NCBI GenBank assembly: GCA_044348005.1
Contig: JBIKTR010000004.1
Span: forward strand, 66,980 to 130,979
Length of the DNA: 64,000 bases
Origin: Vampirovibrionales bacterium
Lineage (GTDB): Bacteria; Cyanobacteriota; Vampirovibrionia; Vampirovibrionales; JAJTHC01
Direction of reading: 5' to 3'
The translations under genes and the position numbers were made by a program. Position 1 is the stretch's first letter. Every line of letters begins with the position of its first letter. This document shows, piece after piece, positions 3,611 through 56,115 of this stretch. Below the pieces are notes generated by a model. That model worked only from the letters and a program-made list of their open reading frames with translations. It was not told the DNA's origin and searched no databases.

Positions 3611-4096
3611 TTAGAAAAGAGCCCCCTCACCCCAACCCTCTCCCAGAGGGAGAGGGGGTAAAGCCAGCTTGCCGACGGCGCACTAAATGCGAGGCTTCCG
3701 AGACATTTTGCGCACGGCAGGAACGGAGCGAAAGCGAGAGGGGTGGGATAAACTCATTCACGAAGTGAATCTACTTCTTTAGGATGGAGAGGTTAGGAGA
3801 GGAAACCAACGGTTTTCTTTCCTAAGAGAAAAAGTCAGAGACTTTTTCGACGGGAGGGGGATTCTTAAGGGGGGCATACTGGGGGGAGGGAGGACGTAAC
3901 ACGTCCCTCCCCCCGCCGCCCCTTAAGCCGCTTTGGGGGTTTGGGGAGTCTTTGGCGGGACAAAGACCCCCAAGCACCAGCTCAAAAAGGGAACAAGAAA
4001 ACCCCCTCACCCCAACCCTCTCCCAAAGGGAGAGGGAGTAAAACGCCCTTTCGCAGAGTCTTCTATAATACAGAAAACTCCTAGGTTTAAAGGAAG
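3611..4096. repeat. Mosaic cluster of small palindromic repeats (families R1, R4, R5, R6)
   Basis: R1 hairpin ccctctccc-aga-gggagaggg at 3622-3663 and 4002-4044; 3661-3730 is the reverse complement of 12425-12511; 3735-3835 matches 20896-20996; 3884-3997 is near-identical to 25272-25398. Confidence 0.85.
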
Positions 4097-9289: not shown

Positions 9290-9620
9290 CCTGTAGTATT
9301 TTAAAGAGTTTTCCATACAGTAGGCTAGACAAGGAGCCTAGATTATTTTGTGAAGGAGTGTAGATAGACCTACATGACTGAACAAAATAATCGTAGCGAC
9401 AAAGTATAGACACTGTAGGGGAAATTATTTAAAACACTATAACATAAATCTACAGGGGAGTAGACCGAATCTTTGTTGTCGACGTATACTTAATTTTATA
9501 AGTTTACGAAGCTGTCTTTACTCCCTCTCCCTATGGGAGAGGGTTGGGGTGAGGGATTCGGGATGCCCTATTGGAGCTGGTGTTTCCCTCATCCTAGCAT
9601 AGCCCGCCATAGGCGAGGCG
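9290..9620. repeat. Intergenic repeat cluster (family C element plus inverted R1 element with GWGEGFGMPYWSW extension)
   Basis: 9519-9560 is the reverse complement of the R1 consensus; 9300-9420 shares acagtaggcta..ggagcctagatt and cgtagcgacaa with 39700-39830 and 54525-54650. Confidence 0.6.
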
Positions 9621-12259: not shown

Positions 12260-12850
12260 CTTCTGTTCCCTCTCCTGATTTTGGCTAGCTCCGTTTAACG
12301 CTGGTGCTTGGGTTTCTCGCTCCCTTTTTGAGCTGGTGCTGTCAGAGACCTTTGCTCGCACAAAGGTTCTCCGACACCTCTAAATGCGCTTAAGGGAGGG
12401 AGGGTCTTGGTCGCCCCCCTCCCTTAAGAATCCCACCCCTCTCGCTTTCGCTCCGTTCCTGCCGTCCGCAAAATGTCTCGGAAGCCTCGCATTTAGTGCG
12501 CCGTCGGCAAGTTTTTCAGAAACCAACTTGTTCACAATTTTAAAATGAAGTGTTGATTTTTGACTCGTTGCACCAGCCGACGTCCAAGCACTAAATCCGA
12601 GCGGGTGAGCGCACTGCGAATCCCCGAGCGATTTTGCGGACGTCCCAAAGGTGCAAGTGGAACAAGCGAAGAGGTTGAGATGGGGGGTGGATTTTTAAGG
12701 AGGGGGGAAGAGAAGGAGAGCCGCAACAACTTCCTTCTCTTCCCCCCTCCTTGAACCGCCTTTAGAGGTGTTGGAGACCTTTGGCGGAGCAAAGGTCTCT
12801 GACAACGACCAGCTATAAAAACAAACGAGAAACCCAAAATCAGGAGAGGG
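12260..12850. mobile_element. Composite MITE-like element bounded by imperfect ~100-bp terminal inverted repeats
   Basis: 12270-12400 is the reverse complement of 12730-12850 (ccctctcctgattttgg / ccaaaatcaggagaggg; tgtcagagacctttgctcgcacaaaggt / ggagcaaaggtctctgacaa); interior carries an R6 copy (reverse complement of 3661-3730) and a 50-bp perfect palindrome at 12694-12745. Confidence 0.65.
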
Positions 12851-12859
12851 CTAGGGGGG

Positions 12860-12888
12860 TTGACGGCGGTTTTTCTTTGCGTTACGAT
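12860..12888 (+). promoter_or_regulatory. Family promoter TTGACG-17-TACGAT upstream of the 12939 gene
   Basis: Aligned with TTGACA-17-TACTAT modules at 21112-21140 and 22086-22115. Confidence 0.5.
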
Positions 12889-12938
12889 TCAAACTAAAGC
12901 TCACCCGCTTTTCTCTATTTACGTCTCTCCTTCAACCG

Positions 12939-13478
12939 ATGAAAGGTGCTTTTCATGCGACTCTCGCCCTCTTACCCACGCCCCACGATGCCCTTGTCGA
13001 TGCCCCAGCCTGCGCTGACCCCCCCAATAGCAAAAGTATAGCGAATCAATCCCTCCACCAGCGCTCGGGGTTTAGTGCTGAGGAATGGCGATTTCTGAAT
13101 AGTCAATTGAGTGAAATAGCTGACCTACAATACCTTTCCAAAGACGACTTGTCTAAATCTATGATTGTTCAAGATCCTAAGGCTGTTTTCAATAGATTAC
13201 ACGAACTATTGATGCGTGGTAAATTATACATACATTGCTTAACAGAGGAAGGCTTTCTTACAAAACCACGACAGGAACAGTGGGATATAATTAACGCGTT
13301 TCATCAGGAAGAGAACATCAACCCGTCGATTTTAGCAAATAACGAAATAGATACTCCCTTGTTAATGTCACAAAGCGATAATGAAGGAGGGTTCTCTCAA
13401 GCAGAGATTAGACATTGGTGGGAAACGTTCGTAACAAGAGTAGAAGAAGTAATCAAAAACCTCACTCCCTCCCCATAG
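12939..13478 (+). CDS. Paralog-family member with recoded N-terminus (frameshift in C7 tract compensated by a new upstream ATG)
   Basis: The family-conserved ATGCGACT start is at 12955 but that frame stops at ~13040; an ACG-to-ATG change at 12939 opens a frame that rejoins the family frame after the ccccccc tract (13016-13022): NSKSIANQSLHQRSGF versus NNKSKVNNSTSALNQRQGF in the 22179 protein. Confidence 0.5.
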   Translation: MKGAFHATLALLPTPHDALVDAPACADPPNSKSIANQSLHQRSGFSAEEWRFLNSQLSEIADLQYLSKDDLSKSMIVQDPKAVFNRLHELLMRGKLYIHCLTEEGFLTKPRQEQWDIINAFHQEENINPSILANNEIDTPLLMSQSDNEGGFSQAEIRHWWETFVTRVEEVIKNLTPSP

Positions 13479-13508
13479 ACTAGCTAGGGTTTGTGCTACA
13501 ATACAGGC

Positions 13509-15698
13509 ATGGATGCCTTAGCTCTTACCCCCCTTCAACAACGATGCCAAACGTGGTCGCAACTCGCCCAAGCCCGAAATTGGTCCGCGCTTGACGCCCT
13601 TAATCAAGACACGATCAACACCCTTAAACAGGCGTGGCAAGGCCACGGCGTGCTTGCCACCCTACAATGGAACCCCCACCCCGGAGATCTGGCGGGCAAC
13701 GCGCAACTGGTGGAACAGGCCATGCAATTCGCCGAAGCCCTCGGCGCCGATGCCCTTGTGCTTCCAGAACAAACGCTCTTGGGCTACCCCTTGCGAGACA
13801 TGCTCTTGCGCTTTCCCAAGCTGGTGAAAGACAATGAATCGGCGCTACAGGCCTTGGCGTTAAAATCAGGCCACACGCGGGTTTTTGTGGGTTTTGCTGA
13901 GCGTCGTTACGACGCGGATGAAGGCTGGGGCCATTCCTGGGGCAAGCCGTATTACAACAGCGTGGCCATTTTAGGCGGGGGCGTCATTCAAGGCGTGGTG
14001 CGAAAAAGCCTGTTGCCGAATTACCATGAATTTGAAGATTCTCGGGTGTTTGAAGCCAGCGAAACCCCCGGCGTCCAGCGATGGGAACTCCCTCACCCCA
14101 ACCCTCTCCCAGAGGGAGAGGGAGTAAGACAGGGGGCTGTGGCCTTAGAACCCTCTCCCTCTGGGAGAGGGCAGGGTGAGGGTTTCGACCAGCTCGAGGG
14201 GGGGGAAGACCCTCATCCTAACCTTCTCCCAGAGGGAGAAGGAACAAAACCCCCTCACCCCAACCCTCTCCCAGAGGGAGAGGGAGTAAAAGACCCCCTC
14301 GACGCCTACGGCAACATCACCATTCACGGACGCAAGTTCGCCGTGACGGTGTGTGAAGACCTATGGGCGAACGAACCGAATCAACACCCGTGGTACAAGC
14401 AAAACGTCGTCGCCCCGCTCATGCAAGGGCATCCCGATGTGCTGGTGAACCTGTCGTCGTCGCCGTCTCGGGCGGGCAAGGAATACCGCAGGCAGTCGCT
14501 CTTGCGTTCGATTGCCACGCAGTACCGCACCCCCATTCTCTACGTCAACCAAGTCGGCGCGGTGGATGAACTCATCTTCGACGGAGGCTCTCGGTTGGTG
14601 GGGGCGCACGGCGAAATGCTCAGTCGTTCGCGCTTGTTTGAAACGCAGTTTAGCCTGCATCATCTGCAAAACACGGCCTTTCACACCCTTGAAGACTGGG
14701 TGCCTGATGTGGAACTTTCCCAACGAAGCCTGCCCAACGATGTGTTTGACCCCTACGATCCAAGCGATTTGCCGCGCACGTATGCCGCCCTGACCTGCGG
14801 GATTCGCGATTACTTCGACAAATGCGGATTCACGCGCGCGGTGTTGGGCCTTTCTGGCGGACTCGATTCCGCCGTCAATGCCGTGTTAGTGGCGGATGCC
14901 TTGGGGGCTGAAAACGTGCTAGCCTTTAGCTTTCCTTCTGAGCTCACGCCTGCTGACAATAAAGACGACGCCCTACAACTCGCCCAAAATCTTGGCATCG
15001 GCTGGGTGGAAATCCCTATTTCGGCGATGCAATCGGCGTTTTTAGAGGGCATTGACGCCGAACGCCAAACGCTAGAATCGTTGTGGGGCAAGCCGACTAG
15101 CGAAAGTTTTGCGAAAGACAACGTACAAGCCATGAGCCGTGCGACGCTGTTGAGACTCATTGGCAATGATTACCGCGCCCTGCCCATTGCCACCAGTGAC
15201 AAAAGCGAGTTTTACATGGGTTACGCCACCGTGAATGGGGATATGTCTGGGGCGTTGGCGCCGTTGGGCGATGTGTGCAAAACCAAGGTGCGCGCCTTGG
15301 CCCGCTGGATCAATCAACAGCGCGGGGGGGTGATACCGCAAGCCGTGGTGGAACGTCCTTCGGGGGCGGATTTGGCGGTGAATCCGCAAACAGGCCAACT
15401 GTTGACGGCCGAAGAAGCGTTGATGCCCTATGAAGTGATTGACGAGTTGATTTGGCGGATTGAAGCCCACCACCTAGATGCCGCCCGCCTAAGCACCCTG
15501 CTGTGGAGCTGGGAACGCACGCACGGTAGACTTGAACCCACGCAGAAGGCGGCGTGGGTGGGTAAGTTTTTTAGGCGCATGCAGGCCAGTGTGTTTAAGT
15601 GGTGGGTGGCCCCGCCGATGTTGCTGGTGGACGCCAACGGCACGCTGGCAAAATCGGCGTACCACCCCGTGATTACCGCAATGAAGACGCTATACTAG
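13509..15698 (+). CDS. nadE: Glutamine-dependent NAD+ synthetase (nitrilase domain plus NAD synthetase domain) carrying an in-frame 70-aa repeat insertion
   Basis: N-terminal CN-hydrolase region (VCEDLWA); C-terminal NadE (LGLSGGLDSAV P-loop-like SGGxDS); ATG at 13509, the ORF can extend to TTG 13491. Confidence 0.85.
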   Translation: MDALALTPLQQRCQTWSQLAQARNWSALDALNQDTINTLKQAWQGHGVLATLQWNPHPGDLAGNAQLVEQAMQFAEALGADALVLPEQTLLGYPLRDMLLRFPKLVKDNESALQALALKSGHTRVFVGFAERRYDADEGWGHSWGKPYYNSVAILGGGVIQGVVRKSLLPNYHEFEDSRVFEASETPGVQRWELPHPNPLPEGEGVRQGAVALEPSPSGRGQGEGFDQLEGGEDPHPNLLPEGEGTKPPHPNPLPEGEGVKDPLDAYGNITIHGRKFAVTVCEDLWANEPNQHPWYKQNVVAPLMQGHPDVLVNLSSSPSRAGKEYRRQSLLRSIATQYRTPILYVNQVGAVDELIFDGGSRLVGAHGEMLSRSRLFETQFSLHHLQNTAFHTLEDWVPDVELSQRSLPNDVFDPYDPSDLPRTYAALTCGIRDYFDKCGFTRAVLGLSGGLDSAVNAVLVADALGAENVLAFSFPSELTPADNKDDALQLAQNLGIGWVEIPISAMQSAFLEGIDAERQTLESLWGKPTSESFAKDNVQAMSRATLLRLIGNDYRALPIATSDKSEFYMGYATVNGDMSGALAPLGDVCKTKVRALARWINQQRGGVIPQAVVERPSGADLAVNPQTGQLLTAEEALMPYEVIDELIWRIEAHHLDAARLSTLLWSWERTHGRLEPTQKAAWVGKFFRRMQASVFKWWVAPPMLLVDANGTLAKSAYHPVITAMKTLY
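14086..14295 (+). repeat. Four palindromic repeat units inserted in frame within nadE
   Basis: R1 units at 14089-14136 and 14253-14295 and R2-like units at 14148-14196 and 14210-14250 translate as LPHPNPLPEGEGV...PSPSGRGQGEG...PHPNLLPEGEGT..PHPNPLPEGEGV between VQRWE and LDAYGNITIHG. Confidence 0.85.
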
Positions 15699-16115: not shown

Positions 16116-16415
16116 CTAGTTAAGTAATTGCTCAAATGGTTGGTTTGTGCAAGAAGTAACTAGGTTATAACCTTGACCTGTTAGTTTATTGGCTTCCGTG
16201 TTCAAGAATCGTGCAGTAGCTTTCGTATCGCCAATGGTCTGAGTAGGAAGCCCATTTGAATAATGCACCCTGTGTGCTCCAGTACTGAACGTCGTTGTTA
16301 TTTCGATTGGGCGCTCACTACCTTTTTTGGCTACAATCTTATTGTACTGACCATTACCTGATTTATTTACACAAGCGCGGTTAAAGGTCTTTGGACCCGT
16401 TATAGTTCCTGCCAT
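16116..16415 (-). CDS. Small hypothetical protein (99 aa, two Cys), tandem paralog
   Basis: ATG 7 nt after AAAGGAA; leader ttaactctcctaatgaaaggaa identical to that of the 15718 gene and preceded by a 15-nt homopolymer. Confidence 0.45.
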   Translation of the reverse strand: MAGTITGPKTFNRACVNKSGNGQYNKIVAKKGSERPIEITTTFSTGAHRVHYSNGLPTQTIGDTKATARFLNTEANKLTGQGYNLVTSCTNQPFEQLLN

Positions 16416-16444: not shown

Positions 16445-16459
16445 GGGGGGGGGGGGGGG
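16445..16459. repeat. 15-nt poly-G (poly-C on the coding strand) tract 29 nt upstream of the 16415 start codon
   Basis: Uninterrupted G15 directly abutting the conserved leader ttaactctcctaatgaaaggaa. Confidence 0.9.
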
Positions 16460-16639: not shown

Positions 16640-17175
16640 ATAGAACCCTCCCTCCTCCTAGCCTCCTCCCTTAGGGAGGAGGAACAAGAACCCCCTCACC
16701 CCAACCCTCTCCCAGAGGGAGAGGGAGTAAATACAGAACCCTCCCTCCACCTAACCTCCTCCCTAAGGGAGGAGGAACAGAACCCTCTCCCTAAGGGAGG
16801 AGGAACAAGAACCCTCTCCCTTAGGGAGCACGCCTCGCCGATGGCGGGCTACGCAGGGTGAGGGAAACGACCAGCTCCAGTGGGGAAGAGTCCCTCCTCC
16901 TAGCCTCCTCCCTTAGGGAGGAGGAACAAGAACCCTCTCCCTTAGGGAGAGGGCAGGGTGAGGGAAACGACCAGCTCCAGTCGGGAAGAGTCCCTCCTCC
17001 TAACCTTCTCCCAAAGGGAGGAGGAATAAGAACCCTCTCCCTTAGGGAGAGGGCAGGGTGAGGGAAACGACCAGCTCCAGTCGGGAAGAGTCCCTCCTCC
17101 TAGCCTCCTCCCTTAGGGAGGAGGAACAGAACCCCCTCACCCCAACCCTCTCCCAGAGGGAGAGGGGGTAAATAC
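16640..17175. repeat. BIME-like tandem mosaic array of hairpin units (families R1, R2, R3)
   Basis: About 11 units: R3 cctcctccc-tta-gggaggagg (LLLASSLREEEQ), R2 ccctctccc-tta-gggagagggcagggtgagggaaacgaccagctccag (three copies), and R1 at 16686-16730 and 17133-17175; irregular unit order with no unique spacers. Confidence 0.85.
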
Positions 17176-17207: not shown

Positions 17208-19145
17208 ATGAACGCCCCCTATTCCCCCGATCAAAACCCCTACGTCCACCTTGCGAGCTTTTGCCGAACGGCCGTGTGGCAAGAAATGGATGCCATTAAC
17301 GAAGCGCTGCCCCCTGAAGCCCAGTTTTTGGCCCGCCTGCAAAGCCCCCCCGCCTGGGATGCCCGCCGCCAAGCCATCATTGAAAAACGCACCGCCCTTT
17401 ACGAACGCCTCAAGCAAGACGACGCGCTGGCCGAACTCATGCACCACGACTGCCGAAACAACATCCTGCTGTGGTTTCGCTACTTCGCGTGGACGTACGA
17501 CCCACGCCCCAACCCCTTTCAAAACGGCAATCGAAGCATTGGGCGCGTGCCCTTTGTGCTGTACCCCTTTCAAATGGAAGTCGTCTTGCGCTTGAATGAA
17601 GCCATTGAATTGGGGGAAGATTTACTGGTGGAAAAAAGCCGAGACATGGGCCTTTCTTGGTTAATTAGTTTGGTGTTTCAGTACCGCTGGTTGTTTCATT
17701 CAGGCCAGCAATTTTTGGTGGGCAGTCGTAAATACGGCCATGCAGACACGCGCGGCGATCTTTCCACGCTGATGGAAAAATGCCGTTTCAACCTGCGTGA
17801 ACAGCCCACCAATATGTTGCCTGCGGGCTTTGACTTTCGCAAGCACGATGTCGCCGGTCGTCTGCTGAATCCGCAAAATGGCAATACCATTATTGCTGAA
17901 GCCACTACGGAAAACTTTGCGCGGGGGGGGCGTTATTCCGCCGTATTGCTGGACGAATTTGCGTTTTGGATGTGGGATGATGGCGCCTATGCTGCGGCGG
18001 GTCAGTCCACGCTGTGTCGCTTGTTGGTGTCAACGCCCAACGGTCGAAAAAACCGCTTTGCCCTAGAACGCTTTTCAGGCCTTACCCCCGTGCTAACCGT
18101 GCATTGGAGCCTTCACCCTTTTAAGGACAAGGTGTGGTACACCGCACAGCAACGGCGCCTGTTGAAGCATGAAATCGCGCGAGAGCTGGATATTAGCTAC
18201 GAATACTGCAATCGAGATCGCGTGTTTGAAGAGTTTACCGCTCAACATGTGGCGCACGTGGCGTATAATCCGGATTTGGAGATTTTGCGTTCGTGGGATT
18301 TTGGGTACCATACGCCTGCGGTGTTGGCCTTACAGCGGGACGAATGGGGCCGTGTGGTGGTGTTGAAAGAATGGGTGGGCCAACGCGTGGTGCTCAAAAA
18401 CTTTGCCCAGCAGGTGAAAGACGACTGCGTGGCGATGTTTGGCCCCAATGCGCGCTTTCGCGATGTGTGTGACCCTGCGGGGCATCAGCATAACGACAAA
18501 TCTGAAAACACCAGTATTGAAGTGCTCAATCGCATGGGTATTCACCCTGTGGGCGTGCGATGTGGCGTGGTTGCTAGCATTGACAAGCTTCGCCACCTGA
18601 TGATTGAAGAGCGCGATGTGCCAGTGTCCCTCACCCCAGCCCTCTCCCAAAGGGAGAGGGAGCAAGGCGACCCTCACCCCAACCCTCTCCCAGAGGGAGA
18701 GGGGGTAAATACAGAACCCTCTCCCTTAGGGAGAGGGCTGGGTGAGGGACACGACCAGCTCCTGTGGGAACAAGGCATCCCTCCACCTAGCCTCCTCCCT
18801 AAGGGAGGAGGAACAAATGCCAGTGAAGAAGCCGTCTTCATGCGTGAAGGCCAGCACATGGTCAAATCCCCCGCCTTTTTGGTGGATGCTCAACATTGCC
18901 CCACGCTCATTGACGCCTTGCAAGGGGGGTATCGCTATGTGTCGAATGATTCGGAAGAACTGGCGCAGGAGCATCCCTTTGAAGATGTGGCGGATGCCTT
19001 GCGTTACGCCGTGTGGGAATTGGGCAAACTGCTGATGGATTCGTCTGATTGGGCGCGGGACTTGCGAAAGGAGCGGTATCAGAAGTGGGAAGCGTTGGAA
19101 AAGTTGCGTCGCTACAACCAGCGCCGTGGGCAGTGGTATGCCTAG
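17208..19145 (+). CDS. Phage terminase large subunit (Terminase_6-like) with in-frame repeat insertion
   Basis: KSRDMGLSWL P-loop variant (KSRQ.G.S type), VLLDEFAFW Walker B, C-terminal nuclease region WDFGYHTPAVLAL...DVCDPAG; no portal, capsid or small-subunit genes nearby. Confidence 0.75.
   Translation: MNAPYSPDQNPYVHLASFCRTAVWQEMDAINEALPPEAQFLARLQSPPAWDARRQAIIEKRTALYERLKQDDALAELMHHDCRNNILLWFRYFAWTYDPRPNPFQNGNRSIGRVPFVLYPFQMEVVLRLNEAIELGEDLLVEKSRDMGLSWLISLVFQYRWLFHSGQQFLVGSRKYGHADTRGDLSTLMEKCRFNLREQPTNMLPAGFDFRKHDVAGRLLNPQNGNTIIAEATTENFARGGRYSAVLLDEFAFWMWDDGAYAAAGQSTLCRLLVSTPNGRKNRFALERFSGLTPVLTVHWSLHPFKDKVWYTAQQRRLLKHEIARELDISYEYCNRDRVFEEFTAQHVAHVAYNPDLEILRSWDFGYHTPAVLALQRDEWGRVVVLKEWVGQRVVLKNFAQQVKDDCVAMFGPNARFRDVCDPAGHQHNDKSENTSIEVLNRMGIHPVGVRCGVVASIDKLRHLMIEERDVPVSLTPALSQREREQGDPHPNPLPEGEGVNTEPSPLGRGLGEGHDQLLWEQGIPPPSLLPKGGGTNASEEAVFMREGQHMVKSPAFLVDAQHCPTLIDALQGGYRYVSNDSEELAQEHPFEDVADALRYAVWELGKLLMDSSDWARDLRKERYQKWEALEKLRRYNQRRGQWYA
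18625..18822 (+). repeat. R1-R1-R2-R3 repeat units inserted in frame within the terminase gene
   Basis: Translate as SLTPALSQREREQGDPHPNPLPEGEGVNTEPSPLGRGLGEGHDQLLWEQGIPPPSLLPKGGGTNA, in the same orientation and frame type as the nadE insertion. Confidence 0.85.
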
Positions 19146-19149
19146 TCGG

Positions 19150-19503
19150 TTAAATTTCTTTGAGCCTGTAGAGCTTAAACACTTGAGACACGACTTGCCC
19201 TTGCGTCACCTGCAAACGGCTGGATTCCGCCTTAATGAAATTAACGACCTCCTCATCCACACGGAGCGTCAGGATTTTAGCCCCTGTTTTGGGCTTGCGT
19301 CCTGCTTTTTTCATGGGCTTAAACTTGCCCTGCAAAAAAGCTTCGTAAGAAGAGTCAAGCATCTCGTAAAACATTTCGTAAGCGTCTTCTCGTTTTTCTT
19401 CGACCCCTGCAATGTTAATACACAGGGGAGAGGTGACGATAAACGCGTGGTCTTCTTCGCTCCACTTGCAGGTGACACTGTTTTTGATGGCGTCTAAATC
19501 CAT
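19150..19503 (-). CDS. hicB: HicB-family antitoxin
   Basis: N-terminal HicB tadpole-like region (HAFIVTSPLCINIAGVEEKREDAYEMFYEMLD) plus C-terminal RKPKTGAKILTLRVDEE RHH-like tail; 1-nt overlap with hicA. Confidence 0.7.
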   Translation of the reverse strand: MDLDAIKNSVTCKWSEEDHAFIVTSPLCINIAGVEEKREDAYEMFYEMLDSSYEAFLQGKFKPMKKAGRKPKTGAKILTLRVDEEVVNFIKAESSRLQVTQGQVVSQVFKLYRLKEI

Positions 19504-19727
19504 TAGGCTTTTCCTTCTTGTTTAAGTAACTGTAAAAAAGTTTTGACGTAATGCGGTTTGATGTATCGTTTACGGCCTTTACTGTGAAAAATGGCGAAGT
19601 TCAAAAGGTTCACACCGTTTTCATCGGCGATGTAGTGGTGACTTTTACTTGGAAGAATCGTCCAGCCGGCTTGTTTAACCAGTTTTTCAAATTGACTCAA
19701 ATCCATGGGTTTATAATGAGACGGCAT
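19503..19727 (-). CDS. hicA: HicA-family mRNA interferase toxin
   Basis: LSQFEKLVKQAGWTILPSKSHHYI...HSKGRKRYIKPHYVKTFLQLLKQ matches the HicA/YcfA fold pattern; start uncertain (ATG 19727 with AGAAAGAG SD, 19706 or 19748 possible). Confidence 0.65.
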   Translation of the reverse strand: MPSHYKPMDLSQFEKLVKQAGWTILPSKSHHYIADENGVNLLNFAIFHSKGRKRYIKPHYVKTFLQLLKQEGKA

Positions 19728-19981
19728 GAGATCTCTTTCTTGGCACATTTTATAATTATATATTAGCGTAATACAAAATAAATTACAAGTGCTTTAAGCA
19801 AAAAAACTGGCGTTGGAAAAGTTGCGTCGCTACAACCAGCGCCGTGGGCAGTGGTATGCCTAGTCGGTTGCGGGCGATGCTTCCTGTTTGCTTTCTGTGC
19901 TAGCCCGCCCCCTCGACAAGTGCGTGAAAATAGGGTAGACTAGGGGCAGTTGTTGCGTTGTGTGTGGAAGGAAATGCCCCC

Positions 19982-21111: not shown

Positions 21112-21140
21112 TTGACAGCCGTGTTTCTTTGCTTTACTAT
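21112..21140 (+). promoter_or_regulatory. Family promoter TTGACA-17-TACTAT with conserved ~65-nt 5' UTR
   Basis: Perfect -35 element, 17-bp spacer, TACTAT; UTR tcaagctaaagcacgatcgcttttatctacgacgccccctcatcctgacgaaag is 95% identical to 22118-22170. Confidence 0.6.
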
Positions 21141-21203: not shown

Positions 21204-21812
21204 ATGCGACTTCAGCTTTCTGCGTTAGCCGCCAGCCCGTTGAATCCCCAACAACAAGCCCCATTGACCCACAACAACAATAGTCTAGTCAAAAATACCC
21301 CGCCCGCTTTGGCCCAACGTCAGGGGTTGACGGAAGTTCTGGTTCAAGAGTTAGAACACCAATATACTCAAATAAGATTCAAATTAAGAAGTGTAGATGT
21401 TACCACTACTTTTGAAAAGTTTGCAAGATTAAGACAATTAGAAACACTCATTAATAAGGCTGAGTGTTTCATCAATTGTTTAAATCATCCTGAGTGGGCG
21501 ACTACAGACTGTGCTGGAAAGGTTAAGATCCTTAAGGATTTTGCAAGAGAATTAGGTCTATCTCGGACAATCAACGTAGCTACTTTTAAGACACATATTA
21601 CACACTCCAATAATAATGACTTGCCAAATAGAGCCTTGCGATCTGAATTGAATAGATTTAAAGAACGATTGAAAGCATATTTAGAAGGTGCGTTTAACAA
21701 TGAAGAAATACAGCGTTATTTAAAGCATGTACGTACAAAGAGTCGCATTCCTAGTGATAATGATCGTGAAATACATCCATGGCGTTATCCCAATCTATTG
21801 ATCCTAGCCTGA
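21204..21812 (+). CDS. Paralog-family protein (MRLQLSALAASPLNPQQQAP...AQRQGL N-terminus, unique AT-rich helical C-terminus)
   Basis: First ~45 codons alignable with the 22179, 2906 and 12939 genes; remainder unrelated. Confidence 0.6.
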   Translation: MRLQLSALAASPLNPQQQAPLTHNNNSLVKNTPPALAQRQGLTEVLVQELEHQYTQIRFKLRSVDVTTTFEKFARLRQLETLINKAECFINCLNHPEWATTDCAGKVKILKDFARELGLSRTINVATFKTHITHSNNNDLPNRALRSELNRFKERLKAYLEGAFNNEEIQRYLKHVRTKSRIPSDNDREIHPWRYPNLLILA

Positions 21813-21850: not shown

Positions 21851-21905
21851 AAGTTAGCGCCTACGCCTCATGCTGTTCATAGAGCCGAAGGGTGTTTTGC
21901 AACAA
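21851..21905 (-). pseudogene. Duplicated fragment of the folD 3' end (encoding ..ATLLQNTLRLYEQHEG)
   Basis: cctcatgctgttcatagagccgaagggtgttttgcaacaaggtcgc is identical to 22780-22826 at the real folD terminus; diverges after ~55 bp. Confidence 0.6.
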
Positions 21906-22085
21906 GGTCGCCACGCCATAGCTTGCCACATATACCGCCTTTACCACAGATTCATCAAACATAAAAACGCCTTCTTTCTTTTTTGTGTGCTGTGGCTATT
22001 ATACCCCCATCCTGAAAAAGAAACCACTGCTGGCTCGCTTCCTGCCCCCGCTCCCTTTGGGAGAGGGTTGGGGTGAGGGGGAAGT

Positions 22086-22115
22086 GTTGACAGGGGGGAG
22101 GCTTTGCGATACTAT
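22086..22115 (+). promoter_or_regulatory. Family promoter TTGACA-17-TACTAT with conserved UTR
   Basis: Aligned with 21112-21140. Confidence 0.6.
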
Positions 22116-22178: not shown

Positions 22179-22775
22179 ATGCGACTTCAACTCTCTTCGT
22201 TGCCTGCCCGCCCGATGAATACCCAACAACAAGCCCCATTTACCCCCACCAATAACAAAAGTAAAGTGAATAATTCTACCTCCGCTTTGAACCAGCGTCA
22301 GGGGTTTACAACGAAACTATTAGAAAAAATGATAGAGTCTTCAAACGCTTCACAAGGATTAATCGAGAAGATTAAAAATAGTCGTCCTGCTGATAAACAC
22401 AAGCAATTAGAAAAGTTAATAAAAACTATTGAGCAGGCTCACTATATTACAACTTCTTTAAGCGATCCGATCTGGTTAGCATTAGATGAATTTTCTAGTC
22501 TTTTAGCTATGAATAATCTTGATTCTCTAAGGCGTTTAGGTACAGCTTCTGGGCTAAAAACAGCACTTAGGTCTTTTAAACAAAGTAGACCTCGTCCAAC
22601 TGACGAAGTGATAACCCAGTTAGCAGAAGGTTTTTATGCTTTACGAAACTCGTTGGAAGCTTTTGTACTAGAACAGCAAAATGAAGCAAAATTAAAAAAA
22701 TATATACTTGGAAAAACAAGGTATGGATTATGGCATCCTCGTTATAAAACAACTAATGCCCCAGTCGACCTTTAG
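22179..22775 (+). CDS. Paralog-family protein (MRLQLSSLPARPMNTQQQAP...NQRQGF N-terminus, unique C-terminus)
   Basis: Shared promoter, UTR and N-terminus; stop lies 2 bp from the convergent folD stop. Confidence 0.6.
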   Translation: MRLQLSSLPARPMNTQQQAPFTPTNNKSKVNNSTSALNQRQGFTTKLLEKMIESSNASQGLIEKIKNSRPADKHKQLEKLIKTIEQAHYITTSLSDPIWLALDEFSSLLAMNNLDSLRRLGTASGLKTALRSFKQSRPRPTDEVITQLAEGFYALRNSLEAFVLEQQNEAKLKKYILGKTRYGLWHPRYKTTNAPVDL

Positions 22776-22777
22776 CC

Positions 22778-23650
22778 CTACCCCTCATGCTGTTCATAGA
22801 GCCGAAGGGTGTTTTGCAACAAGGTCGCAATGGTCATCGGGCCAACGCCTCCGGGTACAGGCGTCACCGCAGATGCCACCCCCCACATCGACGCCGCATC
22901 CGCATCGCCCACCAGCGTGCCGTTGGGCAAGCGGTTAATGCCTACATCCAAAACAACAGCACCTTGCTTGAGTTGCTCGCCCGTAAAGGCCTTGGGCATC
23001 CCCACCGCCAGCACCACAATATCCGCCTGCTTAAGGTAGTCCTCGATGTTTTTCGTGCGACTATGGCAAATCGTCACCGTCGCATGCGCCTGTAAAAGCA
23101 GTTGCGCCATGGGTTTGCCCACAATGTTGGAACGCCCCACAATCACCGCATGCAAACCAGCAATTTCAATCTTATAAAAATCCAGTAAGCTCATCATGCC
23201 CGCAGGGGTGCAAGGCAAGGCATAGGGGGTCAATCCCGCGGCCAAACGCCCCACATTAAAGGGATGAAACCCGTCGACATCTTTGCCAGGTGAAATCGAC
23301 TCCAACACGGCGGATTCATCCAAGTGCTTGGGCAGCGGCAACTGCACCAAAATGCCATCGACCGCCTCATCGTCATTCAGTTGTTGAATCGTGGCCAACA
23401 AAACGCCTTGAGCCACATCATCGGCAAGGGCGATAATTTCAGACTTCATGCCAAGGGCTTCAGCGGTTTGCTTCTTTTTTTTGACATACACGCTAGACGC
23501 GGGATCATGCCCCACTTGAATCACCACCAACTTCGGGAGCCGTTTTCCCGCGGTTTCTAAGGCCAAAACCGCCGTTTTAAGCGTGGCCAAAACGCTTTGG
23601 GCGCAAGCGTTGCCGTCAAGCTTTAGCGTGGTAAGCGGGGGCATCATCAT
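22778..23650 (-). CDS. folD: Bifunctional methylenetetrahydrofolate dehydrogenase/cyclohydrolase
   Basis: 290 aa; Rossmann GRSNIVGKPMAQLL; C-terminal PVPGGVGPMTIATLL. Confidence 0.9.
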   Translation of the reverse strand: MMMPPLTTLKLDGNACAQSVLATLKTAVLALETAGKRLPKLVVIQVGHDPASSVYVKKKKQTAEALGMKSEIIALADDVAQGVLLATIQQLNDDEAVDGILVQLPLPKHLDESAVLESISPGKDVDGFHPFNVGRLAAGLTPYALPCTPAGMMSLLDFYKIEIAGLHAVIVGRSNIVGKPMAQLLLQAHATVTICHSRTKNIEDYLKQADIVVLAVGMPKAFTGEQLKQGAVVLDVGINRLPNGTLVGDADAASMWGVASAVTPVPGGVGPMTIATLLQNTLRLYEQHEG

Positions 23651-25189: not shown

Positions 25190-25450
25190 GGGTGAGGGGG
25201 CTTTCTCATTCCGTTTAACGCTGGTGCTGTCAGAGACCTTTGCTCGCACAAAGGTTCTCCGACACCTCTAAATGCGCTTAAGGGAGGGAGGGAGGACGTA
25301 ACACGTCCCTCCCCCCGCCGCCCCTTAAGCCGCTTTGGGGGTTTGGGGAGTCTTTGGCGGGACAAAGACCCCCAAGCACCAGCTCAAAAAGGGAACAAGA
25401 AAACCCCCTCACCCCAGCCCTCACCCAGAGGGAGAGGGAGCGAGAAAACC
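25190..25450. repeat. Intergenic mosaic repeat cluster (R5, R1 variant, TIR-like segment)
   Basis: 25205-25290 matches 12300-12400; 25272-25398 is near-identical to 3884-3997; R1 variant at 25406-25445. Confidence 0.75.
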
Positions 25451-55989: not shown

Positions 55990-56115
55990 CTCTAAAAAAG
56001 TGGCTTTACTCCCTCTCCCTCTGGGAGAGGGTTGGGGTGAGGGATACGGGATGCCCCGTCAGAGCTGGTGTCCCTCCTCGCGACAACAAAGAGAACATAG
56101 ACCATTTTATCTTTC
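55990..56115. repeat. Inverted R1 element with GWGEGYGMPRQSW extension plus a family C fragment
   Basis: 55996-56045 is the reverse complement of R1; 56070-56110 cgcgacaacaaagagaacatagaccattttatc resembles 39790-39826. Confidence 0.7.

Follow-up and report, generated by a model that had tools for sequence, protein, structure and literature searches.

Gene A lies on the forward strand at 12939..13478 of the window, that is, of the whole 64-kb stretch of DNA analysed here, and it encodes 179 amino acids when read from its upstream start codon, ATG1 (the coordinates include the stop codon). Two paralogs are found on the same strand, B (21204..21812, 202 aa) and C (22179..22775, 198 aa), and in both of them the ATG common to the family is in frame. 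Common to the three genes are the promoter, the 5' UTR and some 45 codons of N-terminal coding sequence, beyond which they diverge into AT-rich bodies. The body of gene A (13074..13475, forward strand) appears in the composition profile as an AT-rich segment with 36-43% GC, and it is fast-evolving and predicted to be helical: in an AlphaFold2 model built on the family alignment, residues 1-41 of the gene A product are disordered (pLDDT <50), and the body forms six helices with pLDDT values of mostly 70-93.

A consensus scan placed a putative sigma-70-like promoter, TTGACG-17 nt-TACGAT, at 12860..12888 on the forward strand. The boxes before B are TTGACA (21112-21117) and TACTAT (21135-21140), those before C lie at 22087-22092 and 22110-22115, and the same boxes are found at all related loci, the shared family promoter being TTGAC[AG]-17 nt-TAC[GT]AT. 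Near the 5' end of the UTR, RNA folding predicts a small hairpin (12896..12911, forward strand) consisting of an AAAGC stem, a 6-nt loop and GCTTT, a candidate element of which the stem is invariant and the loop variable among the paralogs; the UTR as a whole folds no more stably than shuffled sequence (z -0.71). The window contains three copies of the pattern CTTTGCNNTACNATTNAANCTAAAGC, which was taken from promoter and UTR, versus zero expected occurrences, so that the shared leader is not a chance resemblance. A search of 12500-13600 against Rfam yielded nothing in the leader. The conserved leader end, NSKSIANQSLHQRSGF (13026..13073, forward strand), contains the residues QR[QS]G, which are invariant across the family in protein alignments, and its DNA is almost identical in all alleles with an A-type leader (A, L004, L005, L008, L010 and L015). 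A prepilin-like cleavage motif between G and F at QRQGFT was considered and rejected, since no hydrophobic segment follows.

The gene family and its loci

Searches of Pfam, NCBIfam and PADLOC gave no match for the family, and a Foldseek search against the PDB returned nothing at an E-value of <=0.001 (best 1.8). At the 90% identity level, profile searches recovered 21 clusters, and at the 50% level 42 representatives; the proteins all have 95-241 aa, and the full-length ones carry the leader …TPPN[NT]KS…QR[QS]GF. Every family locus that could be placed belongs to the Vampirovibrionales or is syntenic with the present genome. A scan of GTDB genomes with the leader pattern yielded two true loci, both in one Vampirovibrionales MAG from Lake Mendota (JBIKNF01) that is syntenic at both loci and has flanks 94-95% identical to the window, in addition to two chance hits. 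The same scan of metagenome contigs gave 0 hits, and a looser leader pattern matched 120 loci on such contigs, with 0 family members among them.

In the window and in L004, L005, L008, L010 and L015, the gene lies between an RRM-protein gene and nadE, and at this RRM-[gene]-nadE locus the flanks are 94-99% identical and the bodies share 25-72% protein identity. The divergence of the bodies behind a near-identical leader is, to judge from these alignments, a case of allelic replacement or diversifying selection at a fixed locus. More distant Vampirovibrionales (L011, 780-4480, and L138), a MAG among them, carry tandem arrays of at least five family paralogs with another start, MIPT[TL]xRY…, and there the shared CGACTCTC stands in the other frame relative to the MRLSPS start, namely the window's ATG1 frame; this difference suggests that further compensated frame changes have occurred within the first 8 codons.

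Other features of the window

A long near-perfect hairpin repeat is present upstream of gene A (12686-12763), with similar copies elsewhere in the window; miRNA-type Rfam hits on it were discarded as spurious. In a strain that is 99% identical (L001:1-2350), flagellin and ferrochelatase genes lie upstream of gene A and replace the RRM-protein region of the window, and this difference is, as the alignment indicates, a rearrangement breakpoint adjoining repeats at about 12300-12450. GC-rich repeat units of about 40 nt, which translate as PHPNPLPEGEGV or SPLGRGQGEG, are scattered through the window (3622-4043; 9517-9598; 14086-14289, inside nadE; 16650-17172; 18628-18817, inside ORF 17208..19145; 25214-25440; 56005-56044), and at least two long ORFs contain them as in-frame insertions. 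A related MAG is devoid of about 120 nt of these repeats in nadE (the L008 alignment jumps from 14127 to 14248), and thus the repeat copy number in an essential gene differs between strains.

A G15 homopolymer (16445-16459) precedes, on the minus strand, the ATG of the small ORF 16116..16415(-) by about 30 nt; the ORF has no Pfam match. The run is G15 in L001 and L002 and G11 at the syntenic site of a related MAG (L008:6970), and it could be a variable run in a promoter or 5' UTR. A copy of about 58 nt of the folD end lies between B and C (21854-21911, compared with 22772-22828), and the tandem pair originated when a unit containing the 3' end of folD was duplicated. In related strains the B/C site contains one gene (L009, L014, L016) or a different pair (L017). 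Preliminary assignments of 17208..19145 as a terminase and of 19150..19748 as HicAB were abandoned for want of Pfam support.

Reading frames of gene A

The family start codon of gene A, ATG2 (ATGCGACT), opens a frame of only 28 codons (12955..13041, forward strand), MRLSPSYPRPTMPLSMPQPALTPPIAKV, which is closed by TAG at 13039-13041, and the third frame of the leader is closed by TGA at 13016-13018. ATG1 (12939..12941, forward strand) is in the -1 frame relative to the family start and is the sole start in frame with the body when the poly-C run of the leader has its present length of seven; translation from it would yield a product with the peptide MKGAFHATLALLPTPHDALVDAPACADPPNSK. The initial annotation had seen correctly that the ATG at 12955 is out of frame with the conserved QRSGF region and that the frame opened at 12939 rejoins the family frame at the C run. 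Of the two starts, only the one at 12939 is in frame with NSKS…QRSGF.

Measured from ATG2 to GGGGTT (the GF codons of QRxGF), gene A spans 112 nt, paralog C 122 nt and paralog B 119 nt. The shortening of 10 nt that had been proposed relative to the paralogs thus holds for C, the deficit versus B being 7 nt, and both values equal -1 modulo 3. The difference is made up of 1 nt at the C run and 9 nt downstream of it. At the leader site where gene A has GATGAAAGG, B and C have GACGAAAGG. The truncated ATG2 frame of gene A is homologous to the intact N-termini of L015, of L138 and of the L011 paralogs. With translation from ATG1, the product would have an acidic N-terminus, MKGAFHATLALLPTPHDALVDAPACADPP, instead of the basic MRLSPSYPRPTMPLSMPQPALTPP; the recoded N-terminus had been postulated correctly, and it comprises about 29 residues (M1-P29) rather than 28.

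Length variation of the poly-C run

Near its 5' end the ORF contains an uninterrupted simple repeat, a C7 homopolymer at 13019..13025 (forward strand), in codons 27-29 of 179, for which the in-frame length would be C8. C7 runs as such are not rare, as about 20 runs of C or G with a length of at least 7 are present in the 64-kb window. The tract had been named as the likely slip site, and comparison with orthologs supports this role, although its position is 13019-13025 and not 13016-13022. Allele L015 stems from the same RRM-[gene]-nadE locus in another sample, and its flanks match the window at 97-98.7% identity. Between ATG2 and the end of the run, a stretch of 71 nt, it differs from gene A by two substitutions and one extra C (C8), and it contains a single ORF of 166 aa that is open from ATG2 and reads MRLSPSSPRPTMPLSMPQPALTPPNNKSIANQ… and MRLSPSSPRPTMPLSMPQPALTPPNNKSIANQSPLHQRSGF…. 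Consequently, C8 restores the family frame, as had been predicted, and C9, the second length that had been proposed, does not.

The frame status of ATG2 was determined from the distance between ATG2 and AAT(AAC) for the 12 distinct alleles for which DNA was available. ATG2 is in frame in seven of them: in B, which has no homopolymer (…GACCCAC AAC AAC), in C, in which the run is interrupted (C5ACC; CCCCCACC at 22243-22250), in L014 and L015 (both C8), in L010 (no run), and, by way of a compensating slip, in L004 (C7) and L008 (C5TTC). It is out of frame in the other five, namely A, L005 and L016 (all C7), L009 (C9) and L017 (C10), and each of these has an uninterrupted run with a length other than 8. 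L138, like C, has an interrupted run (C5ACC). The C locus by itself has C8 (L014), C7 (L016), C9 (L009) and C10 (L017) in other samples. The slip in gene A is thus not unique; it is one instance of a polymorphism of the run across the family, which the initial annotation had missed. L016 and L009 are alleles of one gene, 92% identical, that lie one base on either side of C8, and the sister alleles L005 and L010 are 1 nt apart at the run. The bodies of the out-of-frame alleles have remained open (179 aa in A, 185 aa in L005, 153 aa in L016, 158 aa in L017 and about 150 codons in L009).

The direction of the change can be read from several alleles. L015 is open from ATG2, L138 reads …TTPQLALTPTNNKS in the family frame, in the L011 paralogs the shared CAGCCTGCGCT codes for QPAL, as it does in the ATG2 frame of gene A, and L005 and L010 differ at the run; together they indicate that the ATG2 frame is ancestral up to the run and that gene A has undergone a contraction from C8 to C7. 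In L004, the closest relative first found (72% amino acid identity to A), ATG2 is in frame despite C7, and codons 7-8 contain one C more than in A. An indel of gene A at 12973/12974, which the comparison with L004 had suggested, was dropped, since L015, L005/L010, L138 and L011 place the change at the run. The same four comparisons imply that the extra C of L004 and L008 is a secondary compensating insertion, a slip from C4 to C5 at codons 7-8 that re-joins ATG2 to the body and leaves 17 codons in the "new" frame of gene A. This compensating slip indicates selection to keep the body translated.

It should be noted that each allele has been found with one run length. At the level of consensus sequences and in a protein homology search, the A allele is C7 in all assemblies and no allele has more than one length, nor was the same body found with two run lengths in any allele; rapid reversible switching is therefore not shown. 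The suggestion of a phase-variable switch nevertheless gains weight from the existence of C7 to C10 alleles and from the intact bodies of the out-of-frame ones, and it is limited by the single run length per allele in the consensus sequences.

The C7 run of gene A has been recovered repeatedly. The identical 179-aa product is present in at least four independent metagenome assemblies (JGI 3300042515, 3300042288 and 3300059473 and Logan SRR27428159), and the three DNAs that were read (L001-L003) are 99-100% identical to the window and all C7. A homology search of a collection of 5.8 billion clusters revealed no gene A allele with another N-terminus, and neither a C8 nor a C9 form of the A allele turned up among about 15 billion proteins.

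Distribution of ATG1 and the choice of the start codon

ATG1 is present in all six A-type leaders, including that of the in-frame C8 allele L015, and in none of the six B/C-type leaders (B, C, L009, L014, L016 and L017), which have ACG at this position. In four of the A-type leaders, L015 (C8), L004, L008 and L010, it is not in frame with the body and starts an overlapping ORF of just 24-30 codons. The upstream ATG had been regarded as newly created and paired with the frameshift; its presence also in alleles where it is out of frame shows instead that it is a standing feature of the leader subtype, not a response to the frameshift. The conservation of ATG1 where it is useless may simply reflect the near-identity of the leaders rather than selection. 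In A and L005, the two A-type C7 alleles that show no compensating slip, ATG1 is in frame and opens a full-length ORF, so that starts are found in two frames, each of which is joined to the body at some run length, ATG1 at C7 (A, L005) and ATG2 at C8 (L015). The out-of-frame C-type alleles L009, L016 and L017 have no alternative ATG, and automated calls begin them at GTG or TTG codons immediately upstream of QRQGF; the out-of-frame state can thus exist without rescue.

No purine-rich ribosome-binding motif was found upstream of ATG1, in contrast to ATG2, which is preceded at a distance of 6 nt by the Shine-Dalgarno-like motif AAAGGTG (12942..12948, forward strand). About half of the long ORFs in the window have AAAGG(A) 7-8 nt before the ATG, and as the other half are devoid of it, initiation without a Shine-Dalgarno motif is normal here. 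In C, L004, L008 and L014 the motif is degraded (AAAGC or AAAAG), showing that the family can do without AAAGG; these four alleles certainly start at ATG2, yet it lacks a GG-containing Shine-Dalgarno motif. Gene A would most likely be expressed from ATG1 in this strain.

Public gene calls start family members at three different codons. P0005, P0012, P0019, P0020 and P0030, when compared with their own DNA (L013, L015), have differing starts on the same DNA, with C being called from M13 in JGI 3300042515 and L015 from M16, and it follows that database N-termini of the family are unreliable, a caveat that extends to its automated annotation in general.

Discussion

The frames, the polymorphism of the run, the distribution of ATG1 and the intact bodies are direct observations. 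The reading that we favor, with a rough probability of 0.55, is that a slippage-prone tract lies in a disordered leader and that two start codons keep two of the three phases of the tract productive. Gene A is one allele of a hypervariable locus between the RRM-protein gene and nadE, and it follows the plan of the family, that is, a disordered leader of about 40 aa that is rich in Pro, Gln, Asn and Thr and ends with QR[QS]GF, behind which lies a helical body of about 130 aa. The poly-C run in the leader would be a hot spot of replication slippage, presumably caused by slipped-strand mispairing. With C8, ATG2 (12955) is connected with the body; with the C7 of the window allele (-1), ATG2 gives only a 28-aa peptide, and ATG1, 16 nt upstream in the -1 frame, would be used to produce the full-length protein, the new 29-residue N-terminus of which should still be disordered. 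Since residues 1-41 are predicted to be disordered, such recoding would plausibly be tolerated. As a standing feature that was not made for the occasion, ATG1 would thereby render two of the three run phases productive. Any adaptive switching would be a further inference from these observations.

The strongest competitor, which we regard as possible but rather doubtful, is that gene A is simply in an OFF phase, or null: at C7, ribosomes would start at 12955 and stop after 28 amino acids, ATG1 would be incidental, and the slip would be recent or reversible. As ATG2 has an ideally spaced AAAGGTG and ATG1 has no such motif, ATG2 could indeed take most of the initiation and give the 28-aa peptide alone. 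Moreover, ATG1 occurs also where it is unable to serve, and the bodies of L009 (C9), L016 (C7) and L017 (C10) are intact although these alleles are out of frame without another ATG, which indicates that OFF states are common in the family. On the other hand, the A allele is C7 in every assembly and has no C8 version in the protein collection, and L004 and L008, which have C7 in common with gene A, compensated it instead of reverting. A start that lacks a GG-containing Shine-Dalgarno motif is nothing unusual here, as shown by about half of the genes in the window and also by C, L004, L008 and L014. The body, moreover, has a dN/dS above 1 with neither stops nor indels.

Recoding during expression would be another way to join the family start to the body. 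Starting from 12955, a -1 shift on C_CCC_CCA (13019-13025) or slippage of RNA polymerase would yield MRLSPSYPRPTMPLSMPQPALTPP-NSKS… plus the body. The run does fit the formal X_XXY_YYZ pattern in the ATG2 frame, the trans-frame product would equal the ancestral protein of L015, and the out-of-frame C-type alleles have no other route to expression. However, all-C heptamers are generally poor -1 shift sites, and slippage of RNA polymerase is known chiefly from A/T runs of at least 9. Of the features of programmed -1 frameshifting, the heptamer is formally present, whereas neither a downstream structure (the 88 nt after the run form no stable one, z +0.79 versus shuffles) nor a conserved out-of-frame layout was found, L015 being in frame and L004 and L008 being compensated at the DNA level. 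In addition, C7 and C9 alleles would need shifts in opposite directions, and we consider this explanation improbable.

A similarly low probability applies to the proposal that the slip has permanently inactivated the gene and that the open frame from 12939 of a decaying pseudogene is due to chance. The family frame is broken, and the 28 codons from 12939 to the run are GC- and C-rich, so that an open frame there is unsurprising; the same frame is open to the run in L015 as well. The AT-rich body is a different matter: between A and L004, the 72%-identical allele, 62 substitutions in 134 codons have introduced 0 stops and 0 indels, and dN is 0.196 and dS is 0.086, giving a dN/dS of 2.3 rather than about 1, a value that comes from a small sample and is suggestive in arguing against neutral decay. 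L005 (185 aa), another allele that has this layout, is intact as well, and the promoter and leader are unchanged; the pseudogene alternative of the initial annotation finds little footing here. Lastly, although homopolymers are error-prone on some platforms, a sequencing or assembly error that conceals a true C8 run is very unlikely and essentially excluded, because the exact 179-aa product has been obtained in at least four independent assemblies (three JGI samples and Logan SRR27428159), L001-L003 are all C7, the diverged alleles L004, L005 and L016 have C7 too, and the compensating slip of L004 and L008 makes sense only with a real C7.

The layout of a slippery run preceded by starts in two frames has a close counterpart in licA of Haemophilus influenzae, in which initiation codons in two of the three frames lie upstream of a slippery repeat and two phases are productive and one is not (PMC2212159). 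In both cases a slip-prone repeat is located just inside the 5' end of the ORF and starts exist in two of three frames, here ATG1 for C7 and ATG2 for C8. The differences are that licA has a (CAAT)n repeat and the present family a mononucleotide C run of 7-10; that clonal switching and the use of both starts have been demonstrated for licA, whereas here they would be predictions; and that licA encodes a choline kinase of a mucosal pathogen, as opposed to an orphan helical protein of uncultured environmental Vampirovibrionales. A 7C run that switches reversibly has been described in glpK of Mycobacterium tuberculosis (10.1101/717272; on homopolymer contingency loci see also PMC1891110 and PMC2831843). 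The 7C run of glpK and the poly-G/C runs of Bordetella pertussis and Campylobacter/Neisseria resemble the present case in that a short coding run gains or loses a base and the rest of the gene stays intact. Loci of the glpK type are ON/OFF systems with a single start, whereas here the second start may turn one OFF phase into an ON phase with an alternative N-terminus; also unlike these loci, one lineage (L004/L008) has fixed the slip by a compensating slip, with no reversion.

The vsp/vlp genes of Mycoplasma are multi-copy genes with a near-identical promoter, 5' UTR and N-terminus and divergent bodies, and a homopolymer controls their expression. The family described here is similar in that a conserved 5' region is joined to highly divergent bodies; it differs in that the conserved N-terminus of vsp/vlp is a lipoprotein signal peptide, with the homopolymer located in the promoter, whereas the present leader lacks a hydrophobic signal and carries the homopolymer within its coding sequence. 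Gene A shows the features of a contingency locus that can be recognized in a sequence, namely a repeat near the 5' end of the ORF, length differences among close alleles that change the frame, intact bodies despite a lost frame, and starts in two frames; it is a candidate and has yet to be regarded as a phase-variable gene. Such loci have been described chiefly in host-adapted pathogens. The Vampirovibrionales lineage is a sister group of Cyanobacteria, and its described member preys on algae; a literature search for phase variation in Vampirovibrio retrieved nothing relevant.

A more far-reaching version, which is speculative and on balance unlikely, would see the A-type leader as a frame-tolerant two-start switch in which the transition between C8 and C7 exchanges a basic for an acidic leader and vice versa, with the QR[QS]GF leader acting as a targeting or export signal. 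The gene would then not be switched off by the change, and the switch would belong to a multi-copy orphan family under positive selection in a Vampirovibrionales bacterium with a predatory or parasitic way of life. If true, such a switch would vary the targeting of the protein rather than its presence, and it would be the first contingency-locus system described in this lineage.

The natural alleles would record three outcomes of one and the same slip, in that the frame was rescued by a spare start codon, mended by a further, compensating slip, or left without rescue, and the family would exemplify the tolerance of disordered N-termini towards frame changes. Its multi-copy nature, the allelic replacement at fixed loci and the dN/dS above 1 would be signs of an arms-race function. 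The logic of contingency loci would thus be found to operate in an uncultured freshwater lineage of the Vampirovibrionales.
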